Shown: in pieces, positions 44,383 through 56,256 of the stretch
Position numbering within the stretch: the stretch's first letter is position 1
Layout of the letters: the number at the start of each line of letters is the position of its first letter
DNA from: Candidatus Hydrogenedentota bacterium
Lineage (GTDB): Bacteria > Hydrogenedentota > Hydrogenedentia > Hydrogenedentales > JAEUWI01
Direction: 5' to 3'
NCBI GenBank assembly: GCA_016791475.1
Contig: JAEUWI010000010.1
Location: 20,352 to 84,351, forward strand
Length of the DNA stretch: 64,000 bases
The notes under the pieces: model-generated
What the model saw: the letters and a program-made list of their open reading frames with translations, nothing else
Databases searched by the model: none
What the model was told of the DNA's origin: nothing
Position numbers and translations under genes: made by a program

Positions 44383-44407
44383 GCCTGAAGCCTGAAGCCT
44401 GAAGCCT
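44383..44407. repeat. (GCCTGAA)3.6 heptanucleotide microsatellite
   Basis: seen directly, between convergent genes. Confidence 0.6.
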
Positions 44408-45822
44408 CACCACGGCGCGCCGATCAAATACTCCAGGATGGCCGCGGCCTGATGCTTGTCTTTCGCGGCGCGCAGGTGTTCGAGTTTGAATTCCATAACA
44501 TTGCGCATGCTTTCCAGCATCTCCAGTATGGAAACCATCTCGCTGCCGGAAGCATATTCGGCCTGCAAGCCTTCCAGGATGGTCTCTTCGCGCTTGAGCA
44601 GATCTTCGCCATAGAGCGCCATGCGCCGGGTGGCGTCATTCCACTGAAATGAATTCTCCCTTGCCTCGGTGGCGAGCATGCGCTGTTCATCCTCCTGGTG
44701 CCAGCGGGTGGCGTTGGCCATGTGTTCCTTCTCGGCAACGCCCGCCCTGATCTTCTTCTTCCATATCGGCAGGTTGATGCCTATCGAGACGGTCAGCTCG
44801 TCGGTCACGCCCCGTTCAGTTTCCTTGAACTTGAAGGTCTCATACAGGTCGATTGCGGTCCCGCCCGTGAACTCTTCGTGACCGGCGGCAATCATGCCGA
44901 GGTCCCGGTAAGTCTGAAGTCGGCCGGGCTCGAAGGGGTCGGTTCGGGCCGCACGCATGTTGCGATCGAGCGCGTAGTCGACGCCGATCGTGATGTCGGG
45001 GTACTTCATCCGCCGCGCCAACTCCACGTCCTTTTCCTCCGCATCGAGGGTATGATCGAACATGCGCAGGGATGGGTTGTTGCTCTTGATGGCGGCTTCG
45101 AGAGATTCCTGGGTGGGCGGCTCCGGGGGGAACTCGGCGGCCTGGGGCGCGGCGATGGGCGCGTCCTGGGGACGGTTCAACGCCGCATTCAGCGCGGCAC
45201 GGCTCGCGGGCTCCATCTGTTCCAGCTCGCTTCGCATATTGTTCATCTTCGCCAACTCCTGCTCCATCCGGAGCACTTCGGCCTCGGATGACCAGCCGGA
45301 CTCATACTGCGCGCGGGCCACCTCGACGGACTCCGCCATGATGCCCGCCTGATGACCCACCAACTTAAGCTCTTCCATCAGGAAGGCGTAGTCAAAGTAG
45401 GCCATCTTCACTTCGCGAAACACCGCGTTGCGCTGTTCGTGCAGGTGGGCCAGCCAATACTCGGCTTCGGCGGCGGCCTTTTCCTTCCGCACCGCTCGGG
45501 TGCCGAACCAGGGAAATTTCTGCTCCAGATCCACCATGAAATAGCTCTCGTCGGTGACGATGAACTGAGTGTAGGTGAACATGGGATCTTCCAGCGCGCC
45601 CGCCTGGGGGATTCGCTCCAGCGCCGCGCGCCAGTCTTCGTAGTGCGCCTTGAGGAGCGGGTGGTTCTCCGCTGCTTCCAGCAGATAACCCCGGAGTTCC
45701 TCATTGCCGGCGAAAAACGCGGGCGCTTCCTCCGGTGATGCTTCGTCGGCGCGGGGAGCATCTGACCAGCCCGCCGCCAATACGGCGATCATCAACAGAG
45801 AGACGAGTTTTAGGTTGCTCAT
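44407..45822 (-). CDS. TolC-family outer membrane efflux protein (CusC/CzcC-like)
   Basis: signal peptide, two-repeat OEP architecture, ATGA-coupled to RND gene. Confidence 0.75.
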   Translation of the reverse strand: MSNLKLVSLLMIAVLAAGWSDAPRADEASPEEAPAFFAGNEELRGYLLEAAENHPLLKAHYEDWRAALERIPQAGALEDPMFTYTQFIVTDESYFMVDLEQKFPWFGTRAVRKEKAAAEAEYWLAHLHEQRNAVFREVKMAYFDYAFLMEELKLVGHQAGIMAESVEVARAQYESGWSSEAEVLRMEQELAKMNNMRSELEQMEPASRAALNAALNRPQDAPIAAPQAAEFPPEPPTQESLEAAIKSNNPSLRMFDHTLDAEEKDVELARRMKYPDITIGVDYALDRNMRAARTDPFEPGRLQTYRDLGMIAAGHEEFTGGTAIDLYETFKFKETERGVTDELTVSIGINLPIWKKKIRAGVAEKEHMANATRWHQEDEQRMLATEARENSFQWNDATRRMALYGEDLLKREETILEGLQAEYASGSEMVSILEMLESMRNVMEFKLEHLRAAKDKHQAAAILEYLIGAPW

Positions 45823-48800
45823 GGGGCCTCCGTCCTTTCTTCGTTCCAGTGATGACGCTGGCTGATGGACATGTAGATGTAGTAGATGACGGGGTAGAAG
45901 ACGAGTTCGATCAGGAAGCCCACAAGAAGGCCGCCAATCATGGGCGCGGCAATGCGGCGCATCACATCGGCGCCGGTGCCTTCGGCCCAGAGCAGCGGAA
46001 CCAGACCGATAAAGGCCGACGCGACGGTCATGGCTTTGGGCCGTATGCGCATGACCGCGCCGTCATAGACCGCGGCCCAGAGATCTTCGCTGTTGCGCAT
46101 GCGCCCTTCCTGCTTGAAACGTTCGAAACTGGTGTCCAGGTAGAGGAGCATGACCATGCCTGTTTCCGCGTCGAGACCGGCGAGGGCGATGATCCCAATG
46201 ACCACGGCGAGGGACAGGTTGTAATCCAGCGCATAGAGGAACCAGAAGACGCCGATCATGCTGAAGGGACATGCCAGGACGATAACAGCCACACGGAACC
46301 AGCTTCGTGAACTTACATACAGCAGCAGTGTGATGATGACGAAGGTGGCCACGGTGGCGGCAAGCAGCCGGGGTATGGCCTTCTCCCAGAACTCAAACTG
46401 GCCGGAGAATACAAGGGTGTAACCCGGAGGCAGTTTCATCTCGCGGGCGACCACCTCGCGCGCTTCGGCAATGTAGCCGCCCAGATCGCGCCCCGCCACG
46501 TCCACATAGATCCAGGCGGTGCGCTGGGCGTTCTCGCTCCGGATCATGGGGGCTCCGGGGTTAATCTGCATTTTCGCCAGTTGGCCCAGGGGGATCTGGG
46601 CGCCCGTGGGCGCGGGCACAAGCAGCCGCTCGAGGGCGGGCAGGTCATCGCGTAATTCGCGGGCGTAACGCAGGTTGAGGGGGTAACGCTCCAGACCCTC
46701 CACCGTCGTGGTAATGTTCATGCCGCCGATGGCCGTCTGGATCACGTCCTGCACATCGCCCACGGTCAAGCCGTGGCGCGCCACCACTTCCCGATCGATA
46801 TCGAAATCGAGATAGTAGCCGCCGAGCGTGCGCTCCGCGTAGGCGCTGGTGGTTCCGGGTATATTGCGAACGGCGTTGGCGGCCTGCTCCGCGAGGTCGC
46901 CGAGGACCTGCAAATCGGGCCCCATGATCTTGATACCCACGGGCGTCTTGATGCCGGTGGCCAGCATGTTTATCCGGTTCTCGATGGGGTAGGGCCACGC
47001 ATTGGCCACACCGGGCAACGAAGTGGCGGCGTTCAGTCCGGCGTGTTGCGTACCGTCCGCGTCGATCCATCCGTACTTCAACTCCTCCATCGTGATGGGG
47101 CGTTCGCTGGGCCAGAATCGATAAAATGGCTTGCGGAGGATCTCGGGCCAGCCGTCATGAAACTGGTTCAGGGTGCGCTTGCGCCAGGCTTCGCGATCGG
47201 GGTTGAGCTGCACCACGGTTTCGATCATGGAAAGGGGCGCGGGGTCCGTGGCCGAGTCCGCGCGGCCGATCTTCCCGTGGACGGAGACAACTTCGGGAAA
47301 GGTCATGATCATCTTGTCGGTCTGCTGCAGCAGTTCCCGGCTTTTCATGACGCTGATGCTCGGGTCGGTGGTGGGCATGTAGAGCAGATCACCCTCGTCC
47401 AGAGACGGCATGAATTCGGACCCGATTCGGGTCATGGGATACCACGTGGAGGCCAGGGCGATGAAGGCGATGATCACCACGCTCCACCGATAGCGAACCG
47501 AGAAGTGGAACAGGGGACTGTACATGCGCTGGAGTATGTTGCTGATGGGGCTGTGCTGCTCGTGGATGATGCGCTGGGGGACCAGAAGCATGCCGGCAAG
47601 CACGGCCCAGCCTATGGCGATGTGGAGCCGCCACGGCGCGAATTCTTCGGAGTAGCCCGCTGCGAGCCACAACATGCCGCCCGGCACGAACATGGCCGAG
47701 AGGGTGATGGCCAGATTGCGGCGCCAGCCCCATTCTTTGGGCAGGACACGCGCGGAAATGAAGTAGTACATGAGCACGGGGATGATCGTGATGCTCAGGA
47801 TCGAAGCGGCGGCCATGGCGGCTGTCTTGGTGAAAGCCAGGGGATGGAAGAGTCTTCCCGCTTCTCCGCCGAGGGCAAAGACGGGGATAAAGCTCACGGT
47901 GATGATGAGGAGCGAAAAGAAGAGCTGGGGGCCCACTTCCTGGGCCGCTTCGAGAATGATGTCGAATCCCGGCCTCGGGGCTTCGCCGCGCTTGACCGCG
48001 TCTTCATCCCGATCCAGATGCTTGTGGCCATTCTCCACCATGACCACGGCGGAGTCCACGACCACGCCGATGGCGATGGCGATGCCGCCAAGGGACATGA
48101 TGTTGGCGTTGATGCCGCAAAGGTGCATGATAAGGAGTGCAACCAGAACGCTGGAGGGCACGACGAATACGGCCACCAGTTCACTGCGGGCGTGGAGCAG
48201 GAAAAGGATGCACACCAGCCCCACCACAATGATTTCTTCGATCAGCGTGCGTTGGAGCGTCTGAATGGAGCGGTTGATCAGCGCGGAGCGATCATAGGTG
48301 GGGATCACTTTGACGCCGGGCGGCAGACCGTCTTCCAATTCAAAGAGACGATGTTTTACGTCCTTGATCACCTGGTACGCATTCTCACCGAAGCGCGCGA
48401 CGATCACCGCGCCGGCGGCCTCGCCGATGCCGTTGAACTCGCCCACGCCGCGCCGGGCTTCACCACCCACCTGAAGCGTGGCCACGTCGCCCAGGAGCAC
48501 AGGAACACCGCCCTCGCCGAGGCCTACGGGCACTTTGGCGAGATCGTCGAGGCCCTTGAGGTAGCCGCGGCTGCGCACCATATACTCGTTTTCACTCAGC
48601 TCGACCACGGAACCGCCCACATCGTTGTTGGACATTTCAATGGCTTCGCTGATTTCGCCGAGGGGGATGTTATAGGCCTGGAGCTTCTGCGGATCGAGCA
48701 CGACCTGGTATTGGCGCACATAGCCGCCAATGGGCGCGACTTCGGACACGCCATCCACCGCCGTCAGGGGGTAGCGGAGATACCAGTCCTGAAGGCTCCG

Positions 48801-49430
48801 GAGCTGCGCGAGATCCTGATTGGCGGGAAGCAGTTCCTTGCCCGTGATCGGGCACGTTCCGGGCTCTTCGAAGGCGCGGACGCGTTCCAGGAGTTTCTTT
48901 CGGTCCGCCGGTGCCTTCTCCGGGTCGGCGTACCACGTGTTTTGTTCCTTATCGTGCCAGAGACCGGCGGGATGGTCCGGGGAGTAGTAGCCTGGATAGA
49001 GCACATACTGGTAAACCCAGCCCACGCCCGTCGCATCAGGCCCCAGCTTGGGCTCCACGCCTTCCGGCAGGCGATCCCGCGCGAAGTTCAGGTATTCCAG
49101 CACGCGGCTTCGGGCCCAGTAGATGTCGGTGCCGTCTTCAAAGAGCACATAGACGAAGGACTGCTCGAACATGCTGAAGCCGCGCACGGCGGTGGATCCG
49201 GGCACGGACAGCATGGCGCTGGCCAGTGGATAGGTGACCTGATCGTCCACCACTTGGGGATTTTGTCCGGGGAATTCCGTCGTGACGATGACCTGCACGT
49301 CGGATAGATCGGGGATCGCGTCCAGACTCAGGTTGAAGACACTCCAAATGCTCATGGCCACCAGCGCCGCGGTCAGCATGGCGACAAGGAGGCGATTCTC
49401 CATGGAAAGTCGGATGATATGGGCGATCAT
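45819..49430 (-). CDS. CusA/CzcA-family heavy-metal efflux RND transporter
   Basis: MIAHIIRLSMENRLLV...LDAIPDLSDVQVIVTTEFPGQ HME-RND N-terminus; ~1200 aa, 12 TM; start at internal ATG giving ATGA overlap with MFP gene. Confidence 0.88.
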   Translation of the reverse strand: MIAHIIRLSMENRLLVAMLTAALVAMSIWSVFNLSLDAIPDLSDVQVIVTTEFPGQNPQVVDDQVTYPLASAMLSVPGSTAVRGFSMFEQSFVYVLFEDGTDIYWARSRVLEYLNFARDRLPEGVEPKLGPDATGVGWVYQYVLYPGYYSPDHPAGLWHDKEQNTWYADPEKAPADRKKLLERVRAFEEPGTCPITGKELLPANQDLAQLRSLQDWYLRYPLTAVDGVSEVAPIGGYVRQYQVVLDPQKLQAYNIPLGEISEAIEMSNNDVGGSVVELSENEYMVRSRGYLKGLDDLAKVPVGLGEGGVPVLLGDVATLQVGGEARRGVGEFNGIGEAAGAVIVARFGENAYQVIKDVKHRLFELEDGLPPGVKVIPTYDRSALINRSIQTLQRTLIEEIIVVGLVCILFLLHARSELVAVFVVPSSVLVALLIMHLCGINANIMSLGGIAIAIGVVVDSAVVMVENGHKHLDRDEDAVKRGEAPRPGFDIILEAAQEVGPQLFFSLLIITVSFIPVFALGGEAGRLFHPLAFTKTAAMAAASILSITIIPVLMYYFISARVLPKEWGWRRNLAITLSAMFVPGGMLWLAAGYSEEFAPWRLHIAIGWAVLAGMLLVPQRIIHEQHSPISNILQRMYSPLFHFSVRYRWSVVIIAFIALASTWYPMTRIGSEFMPSLDEGDLLYMPTTDPSISVMKSRELLQQTDKMIMTFPEVVSVHGKIGRADSATDPAPLSMIETVVQLNPDREAWRKRTLNQFHDGWPEILRKPFYRFWPSERPITMEELKYGWIDADGTQHAGLNAATSLPGVANAWPYPIENRINMLATGIKTPVGIKIMGPDLQVLGDLAEQAANAVRNIPGTTSAYAERTLGGYYLDFDIDREVVARHGLTVGDVQDVIQTAIGGMNITTTVEGLERYPLNLRYARELRDDLPALERLLVPAPTGAQIPLGQLAKMQINPGAPMIRSENAQRTAWIYVDVAGRDLGGYIAEAREVVAREMKLPPGYTLVFSGQFEFWEKAIPRLLAATVATFVIITLLLYVSSRSWFRVAVIVLACPFSMIGVFWFLYALDYNLSLAVVIGIIALAGLDAETGMVMLLYLDTSFERFKQEGRMRNSEDLWAAVYDGAVMRIRPKAMTVASAFIGLVPLLWAEGTGADVMRRIAAPMIGGLLVGFLIELVFYPVIYYIYMSISQRHHWNEERTEAP

Positions 49431-51229
49431 GGCGCGGCCTCCGCCATGGCCGGGACGGCGCGCTCCACGGTGCCGCATTGTTTCATTTCATCGCGATAAT
49501 AAGGGTTGGCCACTTCTTCGCCGGGCTGAATCCACGAGCCTGGGGCCATGGGGCAGTGGATGATGAAGAGATTGGGCGTGACCGCGCCCGAGGGTGCAAA
49601 CTGACCCGCGATGGCGATCATGGCGTCGCTCAGGGGACCGAATTTTTCGCGCTGCACCTCCAGGGGTTGATCGTCCATGGCCTGCGCGGCGCCAAGCAAT
49701 GTTGCCGTGGCGTCCCTCGCGGGGTGGGCTTCATTTGCGATCAGGGTTTCCGCCGCCGCGATGAGGGGCTTAAGATCGAGGGGCTTGTCTTCGCCCGGCG
49801 CGCCGCCAAGGATTGCGCTGAGCTTGAGATACTCCACATAGAGCGCATCGGTTTCGGGCGATGTCTCCGTGGTCTCGGAAGTGACCTCTTCCATGGGCGG
49901 CGCGGCGCTATCATCGAGCATGGGCGTGGCGCTATCGTTTGTCAGGAATTTCTGAACCGCTTCGCGCAGGCGGCTTTCCGTGTCCAACAGGAACTGGCCG
50001 CTCGTGACCACGGCGTCGCCCTCATTCAGGCCCGCGAGGATCTGCACATACCCATCGCTCCCCTGATGTCCCAGTTGCAGTTCCTTGAGCTGAAAGTGGC
50101 CTTTGCCCCCGTCGACAAAAGCGATCTGACGCGCGCCCGTGTTGATGATCGCTTCGCGTGGCGCCAGCAGCGTGTCGTCTCCGAGGATGACGTCCAGGCG
50201 GGCTGTGGCGTACATGCCGGGGCGCAGGCGCATGCCGGGATTGTGAATGGCGAGGCGAGCGGACGTCGTGCGCGTCTCCATGTTCACATGGGGATAGATA
50301 AAATCGATCACACCGGTGACGGGCTCGCCGGGCGCGGCATCGGCCGAGGCGGTCACCGGCTGCCCCAGCGCGATGAAGGGCAGGTCCATCTCGAATAGGG
50401 CGATGTCCATCCATAGGAGATCGTGATCGACGATCTTGAAGAGGGTCGCGCCCGCTTCCACGCCCGCGCCTTCCGACACCATCTTTTCGAGCACATGGCC
50501 CTCCGCCGTGCTCAGAATCGTGACCGTGCGCGGGGCCTCATTGCGCTCGGCGTAGTCCGCTATTTGCTTCGGCGTCAGGCCCCACAACTCCAGTCGTTTT
50601 GCGCTGGTGTTGGCCAGCGCCTGGCCGTGGCCCTCGCGGTTTTTCAACGAGATCAGCTCGCTGATGGCCTGGTGAATTTCCGGGCTGTACAACTCAAAGA
50701 GCGGGTCGCCCGGCGCGATGTACATGCCCTCGGTGTCCGCGTGAAGTTTTTCGATCCACCCGGAAACGCGCAGATTGACCTCGTGGACATTCGGCTCGGC
50801 CTCTTTGAGGAAGCCCGCCGCGCGGATCTCGCGAAAGAGCGGACCCATCCGCACTTTCGCGGTGCGCACGCCCATGTTCTGCACCACGGCGGGGTCGATC
50901 TGAACCGCGCCGCTGGTGTGGGTCGCGCCCGGACCCTGCTTAAGGGGCTCCAGGGCCATGTGGCATATGGGGCAGACGCCGGGCTCTTTCTGGATTACCT
51001 GGGGGTGCATGCTGCAGGTCCAGAGTTGCGCGGTCGATTCTCCACCGGGCTCAGCGGCGGCCTCTGGCGCACCCTCCCGATGCAGGCCCAGGTGATGGGC
51101 GATGGGTTGTCCCCAGCGCGTGCCAAGGGCGATGCCAGCCAGCAAGGCGATGGCCAGTAGAATAAGGGTAATACCGCCGGAACGGTGACCAGCGGGGGGA
51201 AGACCGCTGCGGCTCTTGATTGGATTCAT
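49427..51229 (-). CDS. CusB/CzcB-family periplasmic adaptor (MFP) with N-terminal CxMHP...PGxCPxCxMxL metal-binding domain
   Basis: CSMHPQVIQKEPGVCPICHMALEP; beta-barrel/lipoyl/MPD regions. Confidence 0.85.
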   Translation of the reverse strand: MNPIKSRSGLPPAGHRSGGITLILLAIALLAGIALGTRWGQPIAHHLGLHREGAPEAAAEPGGESTAQLWTCSMHPQVIQKEPGVCPICHMALEPLKQGPGATHTSGAVQIDPAVVQNMGVRTAKVRMGPLFREIRAAGFLKEAEPNVHEVNLRVSGWIEKLHADTEGMYIAPGDPLFELYSPEIHQAISELISLKNREGHGQALANTSAKRLELWGLTPKQIADYAERNEAPRTVTILSTAEGHVLEKMVSEGAGVEAGATLFKIVDHDLLWMDIALFEMDLPFIALGQPVTASADAAPGEPVTGVIDFIYPHVNMETRTTSARLAIHNPGMRLRPGMYATARLDVILGDDTLLAPREAIINTGARQIAFVDGGKGHFQLKELQLGHQGSDGYVQILAGLNEGDAVVTSGQFLLDTESRLREAVQKFLTNDSATPMLDDSAAPPMEEVTSETTETSPETDALYVEYLKLSAILGGAPGEDKPLDLKPLIAAAETLIANEAHPARDATATLLGAAQAMDDQPLEVQREKFGPLSDAMIAIAGQFAPSGAVTPNLFIIHCPMAPGSWIQPGEEVANPYYRDEMKQCGTVERAVPAMAEAAP

Positions 51230-51377
51230 GGTCGAGGCTCCAGATCGAAGGGGGTGATCGGGAGAGGAGCCCTGATGCGGGTGTCAGACGCGAGCGGAAT
51301 CCTCTCGGGAACAGGTTTCGACCGCATTCAACCCGTACAGGTATAGTACACCTGATGGGGCATGCGGGGAGCGAGGA

Positions 51378-51764
51378 TCAGCAGCGGAAAGACTGGGTGC
51401 GCAGGATCAACGGCGGGGGAGATGTCGAATCCTGCTGAGCAATGGCGATGGCAAAGCCTTCGGGCATCTTGGGCAGCAATAGAGCCGCAACGGAAACGGA
51501 TGCCGTCCAAGCGGGGTGGTGATTGTCTTCCGGTCCGGGGTTCGCAGGCCGGGAGGCAGCGGGATTGGCCGCAGCCTGAGTCACCGTCACATCGCAGCAG
51601 GCACGGGAGGCATCCATGACATCGCACGCGGGTTGGGATTCCGCGGCGCAACAACACACGCTGGATACTTCGCCCGACATGCGGCAGGCAAAGGAAACCG
51701 CGCCGGCAGCCCAACCGTGGGCAGCCAGGGCAAGAATCAGAGCGATGTGTATAATTTGTTTCAT
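51378..51764 (-). CDS. small secreted Cys-rich protein (128 aa; CCC, CC and single Cys clusters), candidate periplasmic metal-binding accessory
   Basis: signal peptide MKQIIHIALILALAAHGWAAGA; ...FACRMSGEVSSVCCCAAESQPACDVMDASRACCDVTV; immediately upstream of MFP gene on same strand; coding-like GC3. Confidence 0.5.
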   Translation of the reverse strand: MKQIIHIALILALAAHGWAAGAVSFACRMSGEVSSVCCCAAESQPACDVMDASRACCDVTVTQAAANPAASRPANPGPEDNHHPAWTASVSVAALLLPKMPEGFAIAIAQQDSTSPPPLILRTQSFRC

Positions 51765-52079
51765 GACGCTATTGTAGCAGAGGGTTGGGCCGGACGCAAT
51801 GGACAGTCGAATATACATTCTCTCAACCGTGCGGAACTATGTAATCGGTGTAGAAAAAGAGCTCTGGACCACGGGTTGGACGGATGGGCACGAATGAGAT
51901 GGTCGATTCTGGCGTCACACAAGTCGGCCTCGTCAGGTCCAGACTTCTTTCGGCGTGGGTGTTGCGAAAGCGAGAAGACACGCTTGTTCTTCCGTCAGCT
52001 ATACGACTTCGACGGCCCGAGCGGAAAATTCTTCCCACAGACCGGTGAGGGGCTGTGGGAGGATCATCTGCTACGCCCA

Positions 52080-52478
52080 TCAGTCGCTTCCCGCATGGCC
52101 GTCGCCGCCACTTTCGGGCATATCTTCCTGTTGAACGCGCAGATCGGGTCGGTAACGGTGTCTTTTGTCTGAGTCCTCGGCACACAACGAGGCAAAACTT
52201 CGGTGATAGCGCTTTCCGGGTTGGCGCTTTTCGCGCAAAGCCCATCGAACGAGGAGGAACGCCGCGACCAGGAAAATAACTATCGATACGCTACCTTCCG
52301 TCGAGATCTGGGACTCAAATTGGACGTCGGGCGGAGCCTCGGAGGAATCCGTCACGGCCTGTGCTACGACGAAAGGAAACAGGACACCGCCGTGTTCAGA
52401 TGCAATAATCGCCATCCCCAACAGCGCGGTGGCCATAGGGAAGAGCATTGAGCTACACCGAAGGAGTCGTTCTCTCAT
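52080..52478 (-). CDS. hypothetical small membrane protein (2 TM)
   Basis: ORF track 52080..52766 trimmed to internal start; low-GC region; weak support. Confidence 0.3.
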   Translation of the reverse strand: MRERLLRCSSMLFPMATALLGMAIIASEHGGVLFPFVVAQAVTDSSEAPPDVQFESQISTEGSVSIVIFLVAAFLLVRWALREKRQPGKRYHRSFASLCAEDSDKRHRYRPDLRVQQEDMPESGGDGHAGSD

Positions 52479-52962: not shown

Positions 52963-53850
52963 TCAACTGCCGCACCCGCCGCCACATCCACCACCGCCGC
53001 AACCACTTCCGCACCCGCTATCGCCTCCACAACCCGATCCTCCATCGCCGCTGCTTCCGCAACCGAACCAGGAACTGCACCCGCCACCGCCACCGCCACC
53101 ATCTTTGCCCTCGCGCTTTCCTCGTGCGGCTCCCGCTACGGAAACCAGCGCGCCAGTAAGCACAATTCCCCCACACACCGTTATCAGGGCAACCTGGGGT
53201 GTCGTTAACGTGTCCTGTTCCTTTGTTGAGTCCTTGTCAACGGCTTCGGTGCGCTGCGCGTGGGTATCCAGAAAGAGAGGAGGGTGGCCGGTGGAAATCG
53301 CGAGGCCCAGCACGGACAGCATCCCCGCGACCAATGTGCCTGCGACGACACGTCTCGCGCGAACCCGGGGTATTACCCAGAATCGGGCAGGCTGGAGCCA
53401 CACGCCCTGATTGCGTCGCGCAAAGCGCTCCTTCGCATCGGGCCAGATGTCGCGCGGGGCCACCTCGCCGAAGGTCTGTTCGTAGAGCGCCAGGGTGTAT
53501 TCATACTGGCCTTCGAAGCGCTCGCCTTCGGCCTTGCCGCCTTTGGTGGGGCCGTGGTGGAGGTAGCGCCCGAACAGGGCGTCGCACCATTCATGGTAGG
53601 ACTCGGTGTAGACGATGTGGAGGTGCCAGGCCTGGTCCACGGCTTCGCTGGGCGTCACGTGGCGGTCGGAAATTGCCGCCAGGATGAGGAAGCGGGTGTA
53701 TTCCCGCACGACGCGCTCGGTGAAGGGCCGGGTCCAGCCGTATTGTTCGCGCTGGAGGCGGGCGGTAAAGTTGAGCGCGGCGTCGGGGTCGTTGAGTTGC
53801 AGGGCGTCCGCTTTTGCGATAAGTTCCGGCAGGGTCGGGGGTTGGATCAT
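52963..53850 (-). CDS. GRDP-like (DUF1399-type) domain membrane protein with two TM helices and a C-terminal Cys/Gly-rich metallothionein-like tail
   Basis: AWHLHIVYTESYHEWCDALFGRYLHHGP; TM1 VVAGTLVAGMLSVLGLAI, TM2 VALITVCGGIVLTGALVSVAGAA; tail GGGGGGGCSSWFGCGSSGDGGSGCGGDSGCGSGCGGGGCGGGCGS; GGGAG RBS before ATG at 53850. Confidence 0.6.
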   Translation of the reverse strand: MIQPPTLPELIAKADALQLNDPDAALNFTARLQREQYGWTRPFTERVVREYTRFLILAAISDRHVTPSEAVDQAWHLHIVYTESYHEWCDALFGRYLHHGPTKGGKAEGERFEGQYEYTLALYEQTFGEVAPRDIWPDAKERFARRNQGVWLQPARFWVIPRVRARRVVAGTLVAGMLSVLGLAISTGHPPLFLDTHAQRTEAVDKDSTKEQDTLTTPQVALITVCGGIVLTGALVSVAGAARGKREGKDGGGGGGGCSSWFGCGSSGDGGSGCGGDSGCGSGCGGGGCGGGCGS

Positions 53851-54000
53851 GAGGTTTCTCCCTCGTCGTTTGTTCCCATCGTTCGTTGTGGGAGTATACC
53901 CGAATTGGGGAGGAAATATTCGCAGGTTGCGAGGCTCGATTGCGGGGACGGCAGGGGCGAGCGGTGGCAATGGCTATGATGAAGCTTGCTGTGGGATTTA

Positions 54001-54137
54001 CCCCCCCTACCCCCCCGCAAGCGGGTGGACCAAGCGGTTCACTTTGACACGTGTGGTTCCCCCCGCAAGCGGGTGGACCAAGCGGTTCACTTTGACACGT
54101 GTGGTTCCCCCCGCTTGCGGGGGGCCACGGGGGTAGG
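54001..54137. repeat. tandem 48-nt repeat (2 copies plus partial) of CCCCCCGCAAGCGGG hairpin + TGGACCAAGCGGTTCACTTTGACACGTGTGGTT, bracketed by inverted CCCCCTACCCCC / GGGGGTAGG
   Basis: seen directly; homologous to element at 36411..36499. Confidence 0.7.
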
Positions 54138-54211: not shown

Positions 54212-56032
54212 CTAAAACAACTTCTCGACGTAGACCCGGTCGCCGTCTTTGAGGTGGGCGGAGGCCATAAACTCGGGAGCCATGCGCGCGGTGGTTCCGT
54301 TGCCGGGATCCGCGGCCTTGAGGTGGATGCTGTGGAGTCCGCCGAGCCACCAGCGCTGATCGCAGACGTAGAGCAGATCGCCGTGTTCGGCGGCGAGGGT
54401 GTGGAGGTGTTCGCTGGAAAGCTGGACCACCTCTTGGCCTTCGAGGGCCGGGTCGGATTCGACGGTGAGGTAGACGAGCTTGCCTTCGCGACGGTTGATT
54501 TTTCCGCCTTTGAACTGCTCCATGGCGTGGAGCTGCGTGCCGTTGACGAGGCCCGCGATGGCCTCGATGGGCTGGGGGCGCGTCGCGAGGGCGACGACGA
54601 CGCCGAGGGCGCCGCTGGCGACCAGGCCGAAGAGGGCGCGGGTGAAACCGTAGCTGTCGGGGCCCATGCCGAAGGAGAAGGCGCTCAGCAGCCACCCGTC
54701 GAAGGGCGCCAGGGTGGAGAGGAACACGAGCAGACTACCGCCAATGAGGGTAGCCAACGCGGCGGGGGCGTTGTAGCGCCTCCAGAGGATGCCGAGCAGG
54801 ATCGCCATGACGATGGGCGGTGTGATGGCGGCGGTGAATTTCGCGTGGGCCTGATAGACCGTGTCGCCCTGGAAGACGGGGACAAGGGCAAGGCCGATGG
54901 CCGCCACGGTAAGGCTGGACAGGCGCGCGACCTTGAGGTAGTGCTGATCGTGCGCGCCCTTCTTGATATAGGGCTGGTAGATGTCGTTCACAAAGACCGC
55001 GCTCGCCGCGTTGATCAGGGTGTCCGCCGTGCTCATCAGGGCGGCCATAAGCGCGGCGAGGACGAAGCCGAATACGCCGGGTCCGCAGAGAAAGTGAGAG
55101 GCGAGGATGAAGGCCTCGTTGGCCTTTGCTTCGAGATCGCCATTCTCAACCAGCGCCCGGGCAGCCCAGCCGCCGCCGCTCACGGTGATGGCGGCGAGGG
55201 GCGACAGAATCAGAATCCAGCAGATGGCCATTTTCTGGCCGTCTTTGACGCTGCGCATGGCGAGGAAGCGCATGATGATACCCTGATTCATCAGCACGAA
55301 GGCGCCCGAATTTGCGAGTCCATCCTGGGCGTAGATGCCGATGAAGCTGAATTTGTCGGGCGCGTTGAACTCGGAGAAGATGTAGCGGTGGGACTGTGGG
55401 AGCAGGGCCCAGAAATCCACGAAGCCGCCGACGTGGGCGACGCCGGCGAGGAAGATGCCGACGCCCACGACGAGGAGCGTGATGCCCTGTACGAGGTCGG
55501 TCATGATGACGGAGGTCTGGCCTCCGGCGAAGACATAGAAGGTGACGGCGACACAGGCGAGGGCCGCTCCGGCGAAGATGTTCCAGCCGACCATGGTGTT
55601 GAGGGCAACGCCGAGGGTGAGGAGGTTGATACCCACGTAGCCCACGAGGTAGATGAGAATGATGGTCGTGGCCACGGCGCGGGGGATACGTCCGAATCGG
55701 CGCTCAAAGTATTCCGGCACGGAGTAGACGCGCTGGTAATAGATGATGGGCAGCCAGACGAGCAGGAGGATGGGCATCCAGAACCAGTCATTGAGGTAGG
55801 TCTGGCTGCTGCTGATACCGTAGCTGAAGCCGGCCTCGCTGTACTTTACGAAGCTGTAGCTGCCGACGGTGGTTGCCGTCGCGGAGAAAGCAATGACCCA
55901 CCAGGCAAAACGCTGGCCGCCGAGGTAAAAGTCTTTCGTGGTGGTGCTGTACTTGCCGAAGAAGACGCCGAAGCCCACCACGGCGACGAAGTAAATCAGC
56001 AGGACCGCGACGTCCAGGGGGGTTCCGATCAT
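54212..56032 (-). CDS. sodium:solute symporter (SSS) family transporter
   Basis: MIGTPLDVAVLLIYFVAVVGFGVFFGKYSTTTKDFYLGGQRF N-terminus; ~13 TM; ATGA overlap with upstream small membrane gene. Confidence 0.85.
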   Translation of the reverse strand: MIGTPLDVAVLLIYFVAVVGFGVFFGKYSTTTKDFYLGGQRFAWWVIAFSATATTVGSYSFVKYSEAGFSYGISSSQTYLNDWFWMPILLLVWLPIIYYQRVYSVPEYFERRFGRIPRAVATTIILIYLVGYVGINLLTLGVALNTMVGWNIFAGAALACVAVTFYVFAGGQTSVIMTDLVQGITLLVVGVGIFLAGVAHVGGFVDFWALLPQSHRYIFSEFNAPDKFSFIGIYAQDGLANSGAFVLMNQGIIMRFLAMRSVKDGQKMAICWILILSPLAAITVSGGGWAARALVENGDLEAKANEAFILASHFLCGPGVFGFVLAALMAALMSTADTLINAASAVFVNDIYQPYIKKGAHDQHYLKVARLSSLTVAAIGLALVPVFQGDTVYQAHAKFTAAITPPIVMAILLGILWRRYNAPAALATLIGGSLLVFLSTLAPFDGWLLSAFSFGMGPDSYGFTRALFGLVASGALGVVVALATRPQPIEAIAGLVNGTQLHAMEQFKGGKINRREGKLVYLTVESDPALEGQEVVQLSSEHLHTLAAEHGDLLYVCDQRWWLGGLHSIHLKAADPGNGTTARMAPEFMASAHLKDGDRVYVEKLF

Positions 56033-56256
56033 GGCGTGACCTCCCCGCCGACAAAGGGCAGCCAGAAGGTGAAGGCGCAGGAGAAGAAGAGGAGGAGGGC
56101 GTAGCCGCCCAGCAGGACCCCCAGAAGCTTGCGGTGGTCGCCCAGCTTCAGGTCCAGATAGCCGCTGGAAAGGCCAGCCCAGAGGCCGACGAGTCCCAAC
56201 AACCCGCCGATGCCAAACTGACACAAAATGGGCCAGACACGCGCCATGTCAACCAT
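56029..56256 (-). CDS. small membrane protein accessory to SSS symporter (DUF997/YhdT-like)
   Basis: 75 aa, 2 TM; GGAGAGG RBS; translationally coupled to symporter. Confidence 0.55.
   Translation of the reverse strand: MVDMARVWPILCQFGIGGLLGLVGLWAGLSSGYLDLKLGDHRKLLGVLLGGYALLLFFSCAFTFWLPFVGGEVTP

Follow-up and report, generated by a model that had tools for sequence, protein, structure and literature searches.

A putative CutF/SilD-type leader peptide at the head of a Cus-type efflux operon in Candidatus Hydrogenedentota

The stretch of DNA analysed here (the window) comprises 64,000 nucleotides from a Candidatus Hydrogenedentota bacterium (NCBI GenBank assembly GCA_016791475.1, contig JAEUWI010000010.1, positions 20,352 to 84,351 of the forward strand). 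An open reading frame (ORF) of 128 aa (51378..51764, with the ATG at 51764 and the stop codon TGA at 51380..51378) is the first gene of an operon for a Cus-type efflux pump of the resistance-nodulation-division (RND) class and is referred to here as the leader; the genes, promoter elements and RNA structures located below in the window all lie, like the leader, on the minus strand. Its predicted product, an exported, Cys-rich and SilD/CutF-like protein, is MKQIIHIALILALAAHGWAAGAVSFACRMSGEVSSVCCCAAESQPACDVMDASRACCDVTVTQAAANPAASRPANPGPEDNHHPAWTASVSVAALLLPKMPEGFAIAIAQQDSTSPPPLILRTQSFRC. In the reading that we favour, and which we hold to be reasonably rather than overwhelmingly probable, the leader is a CutF/SilD-type peptide whose nascent chain, when half exported, detects Cu(I)/Ag(I) in the periplasm and holds up its own synthesis, exposing the ribosome binding site of the pump genes or preventing Rho termination; we infer the arrest, its exact site and the direction of the regulation. 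Systems of this kind have been known since 2022-2023, with RND operons as their commonest reported context. What is new here is a CCC/CC branch in Hydrogenedentota and Myxococcota, an explicit fixed-length ruler, a probably leaderless start and a more elaborate predicted RNA.

The leader protein and its family

That this ORF encodes an exported, Cys-rich, metal-related protein tied to an efflux operon had been claimed in an earlier note on this DNA, and the claim was supported by the ORF itself, by a signal peptide recognised by inspection, by the conservation of the Cys residues and by the genes found downstream. The N-terminus looks Sec-like on inspection, with MKQ followed by the hydrophobic stretch IIHIALILALAA and then by HGWA before AG; K2, the hydrophobic residues 4-15 and the small residues at -3/-1 (G-W-A before A) are its signal features. 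The signal peptide (51702..51764) would run from residue 1 to ~19-21 (MKQIIHIALILALAAHGWA before AG), as judged by inspection and by a helix in the AlphaFold2 (AF2) model, and is a family-wide feature. As an alternative to type I cleavage, the protein may be processed as a lipoprotein at C27, as predicted for CusD. A longer version of the ORF (start at 51818, 146 aa) was rejected because the extension is not conserved as protein and overlies the conserved promoter.

Seven Cys residues fall within 31 residues of the leader, with the spacing C27-x9-C37C38C39-x7-C47-x8-C56C57, and the eighth is the last residue of the protein (C128). The putative metal-sensing cluster (51594..51686; residues 27-57, FAC-x9-CCC-x7-C-x8-CCD) is made up of columns that are invariant or nearly so in close and distant relatives. 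Homologues with conserved Cys residues were indeed found, 14 of them close (65-95% identity) and 73 distant (20-37% identity). In the former, C56 and C57 do not vary at all, with C37-39 and C47 kept in at least 90%, and in the latter C27, C39, C56 and C57 are invariant and C37 and C38 are kept in at least 90%. The cluster described in the earlier note is real and conserved, although the spacing noted there (C-x7-CCC-x6-C-x8-CC) was miscounted by one or two residues. As read from the alignments, the cluster is more than a product of chance, and it would presumably bind metal.

In addition to the Cys residues, the 14 close homologues keep an NxHPAW block, the motif MPEG and the C-terminal sequence PPPLILxTQSxRC. 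A scan of species genomes retrieved the protein from three species only, all of them Hydrogenedentales-like (Candidatus Hydrogenedentales), and a profile search of 1.8 billion cluster representatives retrieved 89 clusters at E<=1e-3, nearly all with proteins of 121-147 aa. Members of this family (the window family) share a common plan, in which a signal peptide is followed by [FY]xCxMxGxV..CCC, by 12-18 residues, by CC[DE]V, by an unconserved linker and finally by a C-terminal motif, PP..P[LI][FY]LxNxS[FL][LR][ICR], which always abuts the stop codon. Conservation is limited to the Cys motifs and to the last ~16 residues up to the stop. In the leader itself, the C-terminal PPP-LILRTQSFRC (51378..51419; residues 116-128 plus the stop codon) is the putative ribosome-arrest segment. 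Its PPP occupies residues 116-118 of 128, so that the last PP begins 12 residues before the end, and PPP, I120, L121, Q124, S125, R127 and C128 are invariant among the close homologues. In the family, the last PP lies 11-19 residues from the end in ~85% of 115 proteins.

The linker that leads from the CC motif to the C-terminal one could not be aligned, yet its length is kept. Counted from the CC motif, the C-terminus lay 63-74 aa away (median 69) in 111 of the 115 family proteins, the four exceptions being three apparently truncated proteins and a longer one, whereas the spacing between CCC and CC, 17-27 residues in the same set, was relatively more variable. The distance of 63-74 aa is also shared by proteins that were matched by the profile only in their N-terminal half, and therefore the ruler is not an artefact of the retrieval.

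The scans of Pfam and NCBIfam with the leader protein returned no match at E<=1, including CusF (PF11604) and CopC, and no barrel was seen in the AF2 model, in agreement with the lack of resemblance to CusF and CopC stated in the earlier note. DUF2946 (PF11162) was matched neither by the leader (E<=1) nor by any of 73 family members (E<=0.1). The NCBIfam model HYC_CC_PP (NF047658) was hit by one of the 73 members at E=0.091, which is at chance level and far below the cut-off; the name of this model suggests, by its motif style, an analogous family. As far as the sequences tell, the window family is an unannotated CCC/CC branch in Hydrogenedentota and Myxococcota, without a model in Pfam or NCBIfam.

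A relationship was suggested by profile-profile comparisons with SilD. The sequences of SilD and CzcI were taken from pMOL30, and an alignment of 33 SilD relatives was compared by hhalign with that of the window family. The global alignment of the two was collinear, with a probability of 92.6% (E=6e-8), and similar values were obtained for the N-terminal part alone (93.1%, E=3e-7) and for the C-terminal 19 columns alone (93.7%, E=2e-7). The suggestion of the earlier note to search with DUF2946 and similar models was thus right in part, as Pfam DUF2946 is unmatched while the family is collinear with SilD, a CutF-like/DUF2946-like protein, at ~93%. SilD itself has no Pfam match, some of its relatives carry PF11162, and the match of CzcI to DUF2946 is weak (E=0.026); as SilD fails the PF11162 model and some of its relatives match, this model takes in no more than a fraction of the CutF-like group. 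On the basis of these profiles, SilD and CusD are probably distant relatives of the window family, which, we concluded, belongs to the same kind in any case.

SilD and CusD of Cupriavidus metallidurans (silDCBA, cusDCBAF) are, like the leader, encoded first in a Cu/Ag RND operon, are of ~130 aa, show [FY]AC after the signal peptide and keep a fixed 60-70 aa from the second Cys motif to the C-terminus. SilD, which heads silDCBA on pMOL30, consists of a signal peptide followed by AAYAC...LCQAHC...PPPRPLAILHCCFRI, and its C-terminus PPPPLAILHCCFRI resembles PPPLILRTQSFRC of the window family and aligns with the putative arrest segment. In the SilD family, aligned starting from the pMOL30 protein (locus L021:30024-30419, minus strand), the distance from CxxHC to the C-terminus is 60-64 aa, whereas that from the first Cys to CxxHC varies between 31 and 52 aa. 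The fixed end of the ruler is thus the C-terminus, as would be expected if the geometry with respect to the ribosome matters. The two groups differ in their central motif, which is LCxxHC in SilD and CCC-x17-27-CC in the window family, and in their hosts, the SilD relatives being from Burkholderiales and the window family from Hydrogenedentales and Myxococcota. The literature is divided on what SilD and CusD do, as they are counted among the CutF-like proteins in PMC9973294, while CusD is taken for a Cu(I)-sequestering lipoprotein in PMC10304878.

The position of the gene is also constant. In all the loci with context, from Hydrogenedentales and Myxococcota, the leader heads a Cus-type RND operon; for the distant loci, from relatives at 21-36% identity, the contexts came from exact-protein look-ups, among which L010 was too short to inform. 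The gene that follows the leader changes, being the adaptor in Hydrogenedentales and the outer-membrane factor in Myxococcota, and the position of the leader does not.

The earlier note had taken the protein for something positioned like a periplasmic metallochaperone, that is, a stable CusF-like one. Such a protein, soluble or lipid-anchored, would sequester Cu(I)/Ag(I) and hand the metal over to the adaptor or to the pump, a role that would be compatible with a regulatory one. We consider this possible but not probable, and no longer the leading interpretation. Seven clustered and conserved Cys residues after a signal peptide speak for it, the gene is constantly linked to Cus-type systems whose adaptor has metal-binding domains (HMBD, YtkA), the invariant Cys just past the signal peptide is preceded by Ala and may be a lipidation site, and CusD has been read as a lipoprotein that sequesters Cu(I) in the periplasm and supplies CusF and CusCBA (PMC10304878, Nies laboratory). 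The AF2 model, which was built on the alignment of 73 sequences (mean predicted local distance difference test (pLDDT) 68, predicted template modelling score 0.37), bears on it in both directions. Besides the helix at residues 2-16 (pLDDT ~90), its sole confident region is a small hairpin that joins the Cys motifs (pLDDT ~87), but residues 60-128 (pLDDT 51-69) are without predicted fold and almost without secondary structure, with just one helix of five residues (92-96). Neither the conservation of the C-terminus up to the stop with its PP(P), nor the linker of fixed length and unconserved sequence, nor the constant first position in the operon is explained by a chaperone. The conserved structured RNA 3' of the stop codon, described in the next section, also counts against it, as does the fate of CutF, a characterised relative, which is broken down once exported and cannot be detected in cells (PMC9973294). 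Together, these features fit a CutF-type nascent-chain sensor better than a chaperone.

Promoter and intergenic RNA

Upstream of the leader, an extended -10 element (TGCTACAAT, 51771..51779) ends 6 nt before the ATG and was invariant in the nine orthologues compared, with constant spacing to the ATG and without an intervening Shine-Dalgarno (SD) sequence. A putative -35 element, TTGCGT (51794..51799), was placed 17 nt upstream of the -10 by its likeness to the consensus; a strict sigma-70 scan did not flag it, but its TTGC is kept in 9/9 orthologues and a related AATGCGT is equally placed in L013, L015 and L016, distant loci from another phylum (Myxococcota). Four of six distant loci share the layout of a -10 element followed by 6 or 7 nt and the start codon, with TGTTATAAT-N7-ATG in L009 and with TATAAT or TATAGT, N6 and GTG in L013, L015 and L016. 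Transcription is predicted to start on the A of the ATG at 51764, in which case the leader mRNA is, as the promoter layout suggests, probably leaderless.

The gap between the leader and the adaptor gene had been put at ~150 nt in the earlier note, and measures 148 nt (51230..51377). Orthologous gaps (n=9, 148-184 nt) were aligned and a consensus fold was obtained with RNAalifold. The conserved blocks are UGAUCC at the stop, GUUCCCGAGAGGA, UCCUCUCCCGAUC, GAUCUGGAGC and the start region, and between them the sequence is variable and differs in length by up to 36 nt. In the consensus fold, a hairpin (H1, 51322..51367) beginning ~15 nt past the stop is followed by a helix, GAGAGGA/UCCUCUC, around a variable insert and by a GAUC/GAUC hairpin. 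The latter two belong to a three-way junction (51243..51312) made up of GUUCC (51308..51312), GAGAGGA (51300..51306) paired with UCCUCUC (51262..51268), and the hairpin GAUC-N9-GAUC (51243..51259). H1, with the palindrome CAGGUGUACUAUACCUG (51338..51354) as its apical part, showed compensatory double changes at 7 of its 12 pairs, with 85-90% of cells paired; in the three-way junction there was one compensatory change, in L001, and the insert between the arms of the helix varied by up to 36 nt. For the whole consensus structure, 88% of cells were paired, compared to 31-48% when the partners were slid. A permissive Rfam scan of 51000..52100 returned just NsiR4 and a snoRNA, both at chance level (E>2).

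These alignments bear on a claim of the earlier note, according to which the gap could hold an operator for a metal-responsive regulator of the MerR/ArsR type. In such a case the gap would be a DNA site for a regulator of the MerR/ArsR/CsoR type with a separate promoter for the pump, and the small ORF would be an independent gene. The 17-bp palindrome CAGGTGTACTATACCTG at 51338..51354, which holds a -10-like TACTAT, speaks for a site of this type. However, it was present in only three of the nine orthologues, at the tip of H1, and was replaced in the others by different sequences that keep the pairing, and inserts of up to 36 nt separate the conserved blocks. The gap therefore behaves as an RNA helix and not as a DNA operator. 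In addition, no sigma-70-like promoter was found on the minus strand of the gap, and no metal regulator gene adjoined the operon at any of the loci examined. An operator of this kind is thus very unlikely.

The SD sequence of the adaptor gene (GGAG, 51238..51241) and its ATG (51229..51227) lie within 51227..51241, in which CTGGAGC is invariant. Two partners are available for GGAGC, either GUUCC, which was the choice of RNAalifold, or GCUCC just past the leader stop. The latter belongs to the stop codon and the next 10 nt (UGAUCCUCGCUCC, 51368..51380), the predicted anti-SD/anti-start element, whose UGAUC is invariant in the nine orthologues. In this post-stop pairing GCUCC pairs with the SD and UGAUCC with a GGAUCA that overlaps the AUG, and it was chosen by the single-sequence minimum free energy folds of eight of the nine orthologues; 87% of cells in the helix were paired. 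The SD bases had an unpaired probability of at most 0.05 in 6/9 orthologues, and of 0.06-0.16 at some bases in L011 and L019. Analogous pairings were found at distant loci, between CUCCUCUC at +10 and GAGAGGAG in L009, between UAGUCCUCG and CGAGGAUCUA in L012, between UGAUCC and GGAUCA in L013 and between CGCUCC and GGAGCG in L014, so that the partner of the SD or start lies 0-17 nt from the stop in the window clade and in these four loci.

From the leader stop through the gap to the adaptor start (51243..51409 and the orthologous gaps) there are 3-6 copies of GATC, a self-complementary sequence, in all cases within predicted helices. The five GATC sites near the junction were considered as Dam-type signals and rejected, as the window has a mean of 5.5 GATC per kb and the enrichment is small.

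The same sensor may also have a different output. In this alternative, Rho-dependent termination within the gap would be governed by where the ribosome stands at the leader's end, as in CruR or TnaC, instead of or besides access to the SD. The composition of the gap, C-rich and G-poor (C/G 1.07-1.70; C14 and G6 in the first 30 nt past the stop in the window), would suit Rho, and its length of 148-184 nt is comparable to the 162 nt of the cruR gap, where Rho acts (PMC9426467). No intrinsic terminator was found on the minus strand of the gap either. In C. metallidurans without metal only cusD is expressed, cusCBAF being induced by metal (PMC10304878), and this would fit attenuation of transcription. 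On the other hand, tight structure is predicted over most of the gap, which is unfavourable for the loading of Rho, and the CruR operon is turned off by copper, the wrong sign for an efflux pump, so that an inverted logic, like that of TnaC, would be needed. We regard a Rho-dependent output as rather unlikely.

Known systems and the proposed mechanism

The closest functional parallel to the favoured reading is provided by the CutF-like proteins, defined by a length below 150 aa, a signal peptide, a PP among the final 15 residues and a same-strand gene lying downstream (Ozturk et al. 2023, PMC9973294). In that work OEP, ACR_tran and HlyD_D23 were the commonest downstream neighbours of CutF-like genes, and SilD, CusD, CopL and CruR were labelled in the CutF-like network (PMC9973294). 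The leader has 128 aa, a signal peptide by inspection, a Cys motif, a PP in its 15 C-terminal residues and a downstream gene of the same orientation, although its Cys motif is of a type different from CxxxC and CxxC.

CutF requires co-translational export by Sec, and copper on the periplasmic side prolongs a stall at its PPP, which melts an intergenic stem-loop that hides the next SD; the protein itself is degraded after export (PMC9973294; bioRxiv 10.1101/2025.02.05.636593). CutF of Rhodobacter capsulatus (cutFOG) is, like the leader, a Sec-exported product of less than 150 aa from the first gene of a copper-detoxification operon, and both have a Cys near the signal peptide, a second Cys motif, a C-terminal PPP and, by prediction in the case of the leader, a structured gap RNA over the next SD. 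They differ in that the CxxxC of CutF is 45 aa from the C-terminal motif, compared to ~55-70 aa for the CCC...CC of the leader, in that CutF regulates a multicopper oxidase while the leader heads an RND pump operon, and in that the gap of CutF is short with a single stem-loop, whereas that of the window family has 148-184 nt with a hairpin and a three-way junction. CutF itself is set beside the leader here by description, the profile comparison being with the SilD family.

Other leaders share part of this scheme. The product of the upstream ORF CruR (Bp2923, DUF2946) of Bordetella pertussis also contains Cys and heads a copper operon; its nascent chain senses copper, it arrests at a C-terminal RAPP and its intergenic distance is 162 nt (Roy et al. 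2022, PMC9426467). In contrast to what is proposed here, CruR does not depend on its signal peptide, acts through Rho-dependent termination and turns off an uptake system with copper, whereas the leader heads an efflux system that is expected to be turned on. CzcI of C. metallidurans, also small and exported, has its gene immediately before czcCBA and is regarded as a regulator that senses metal, but it is His-rich, has CxxC, lacks the C-terminal proline motif and shows a weak DUF2946 match, which the leader does not. CusF of Escherichia coli is likewise a small periplasmic protein of a cus operon, although it is a folded beta-barrel with a Met/Trp site, is not encoded first, and its model PF11604 is not matched by the leader. 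In SecM, VemP and MifM, which are exported leaders, arrest at the C-terminus holds the ribosome near the end of the ORF and unmasks the downstream SD (PMC9973294). These three monitor export capacity, not metal, and have no sequence relationship to the leader. The segment [FY]LxNQSF may resemble the arrest segment of VemP.

In the mechanism that we propose, a strong extended -10 promoter would drive the leader, the mRNA being probably leaderless, and Sec would export the product during its translation. With the ribosome at PPP-LILxTQSxRC, the Cys cluster would lie ~70 residues back from the peptidyl-transferase centre, and since ~70 residues fill the tunnel and cross SecYEG, it would have just emerged on the periplasmic side. 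Cu(I)/Ag(I) on the emerged cluster would delay the release of the nascent chain, and the ribosome would then linger at or near the leader stop codon, covering the 10-15 nt past it (UGAUCCUCGCUCC). Left uncovered, this element would pair with the SD and start of the adaptor gene, closing a large structured RNA; when it is covered, the cusB-cusA-cusC-like genes would be translated or, equivalently, the transcript would be shielded from Rho. In favour of this mechanism we count the constant first position, the restriction of conservation to the Cys motifs and the C-terminus, the ruler, the agreement with the definition of CutF-like proteins, the similarity to SilD, the structured gap RNA, the lack of a promoter or intrinsic terminator in the gap and of an adjacent regulator gene, the poorly predicted fold of residues 60-128, and the expression of cusD alone in C. 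metallidurans without metal (PMC10304878).

Several points weigh against this mechanism. The function of the leader was read from sequence comparison and predictions, and its link to the CutF-like proteins rests on the profile-profile scores of ~93%, which span the signal peptide and a short C-terminal motif; it depends on these scores because Pfam DUF2946 is unmatched. With 7-8 conserved Cys residues, the family has more than a sensor would strictly need, and in ~10% of its members the PP doublet is absent and only single prolines are found. Regarding the RNA, no covariation was detected in the helix that joins the stop region to the SD and start, the alternative partner of the SD, GUUCC, lies ~70 nt past the stop and beyond the reach of a ribosome held there, and the gap of 148-184 nt is long compared to most CutF-type gaps, which are below 100 nt (PMC9973294). 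Overall pairing of the SD in this GC-rich RNA was not above that of dinucleotide shuffles, and SD pairing as such was not used as evidence because the shuffles sequester the SD about as often. The helix between the stop region and the SD beat the shuffles modestly, 6-35 of 200 shuffles reaching the observed value in most loci, and the result was not significant in L008, L009 and L015. Only the choice of a partner next to the stop codon is modestly enriched over shuffles, which is suggestive.

A more general interpretation can be put forward tentatively. In it, the CCC/CC family would be a distinct class of transmembrane nascent-chain metal sensors on leaderless mRNAs, with the linker as a ruler of 63-74 aa (60-64 aa in SilD) that places the thiols at the periplasmic mouth of SecYEG at the moment of arrest; the site of three plus two Cys may, instead of responding to copper alone, be tuned to silver (Ag(I)), gold (Au(I)), further thiophilic metals or the redox state of the periplasm, and the RNA device would be more elaborate than the stem-loop of CutF. 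If the ruler is read correctly, it would amount to a general rule of design for sensors that work across the membrane by stalling, and the constant distance from the Cys motif to the C-terminus across barely alignable sequences is a quantitative prediction of the transmembrane-stalling model. If the favoured reading of the leader is true, copper sensing by a stalled half-exported chain extends to RND efflux pumps in two more phyla, Hydrogenedentota and Myxococcota, and operons without a regulator of the CusRS or CueR type may be under the control of a leader. Regarding annotation, default names such as chaperone or "copper resistance protein" are unwarranted for such genes.

Genes of the efflux operon and its surroundings

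The gene order in Hydrogenedentales is leader, adaptor, pump and outer-membrane factor. In the window, the leader is followed by a gene for a CusB-like membrane-fusion adaptor (49427..51229; Pfam HlyD_D23 1.6e-58 and HMBD 4e-10; NCBIfam CusB 2.9e-39) with an N-terminal HMBD and a C-terminal DUF3347-like extension, by that for a heavy-metal RND pump of the CusA/CzcA family (45819..49478; TIGR00914, 1063.7 bits, above cut-off) and by that for an outer-membrane efflux factor (44407..45822; Pfam OEP 6.2e-31), whose first 4 nt are shared with the 3' end of the pump gene. The HMBD of the adaptor is of the CxxC type, and its C-terminal extension of ~160 aa (residues ~440-600), which bears a CPM motif, is weakly similar to DUF3347 and to the LIC13259 family; the adaptors of the Myxococcota loci bear YtkA domains instead.

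At the distant loci, two of which are named in their sources as a deltaproteobacterial metagenome-assembled genome and as Kofleriaceae, the arrangement varies. The leader is followed by a cupredoxin gene, a small ORF, OEP and more genes in L009, and by ORFs of 498 and 1068 aa in L012, which were read as adaptor and RND pump by their size and order. In the Myxococcota-like loci L013-L016 the order is leader, OEP, YtkA/HMBD-CusB adaptor and pump, with genes for a copper oxidase, a P-type ATPase or a cupredoxin nearby. In L016 the start of the outer-membrane factor as called (L016:7402-7426, 23 nt past the leader stop) sits within a hairpin whose homologue opens the gaps (111-135 nt) of L013 and L015, and the OEP call is probably too long at its 5' end.

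The neighbours bear on one further interpretation of the leader, as the precursor of a modified, Cys-rich, copper-buffering peptide, a ribosomally synthesised and post-translationally modified one. Bufferins are peptides of this sort, and the copper context and the Cys-rich core behind a signal peptide would be in keeping with it. However, no gene for an MNIO/DUF692 or other modification enzyme was found at the ~12 loci examined, where the neighbours are efflux components only, and such a precursor is the least credible of the alternatives considered.

Upstream of the leader the neighbours change from locus to locus, with an ORF of 300-335 aa at some loci and a YfhO or other gene at L017 and L018. 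In the window, an ORF of 335 aa (52963..53970) lies directly upstream of the leader; it has no Pfam or NCBIfam match and a tail rich in Gly and Cys, GGGGGGCSSWFGCGSSGDGGSGCGGDSGCGSGCGGGGCGGGCGS. A gene of similar size (300 aa) takes the same position in L001 and L002 and is absent from L017 and L018, and because of this absence the 335-aa ORF is probably outside the leader-pump unit. Between this ORF and a sodium:solute symporter gene (54212..56224), a 48-nt tandem repeat was found at 54011..54121, with 2.3 copies at 96% identity.

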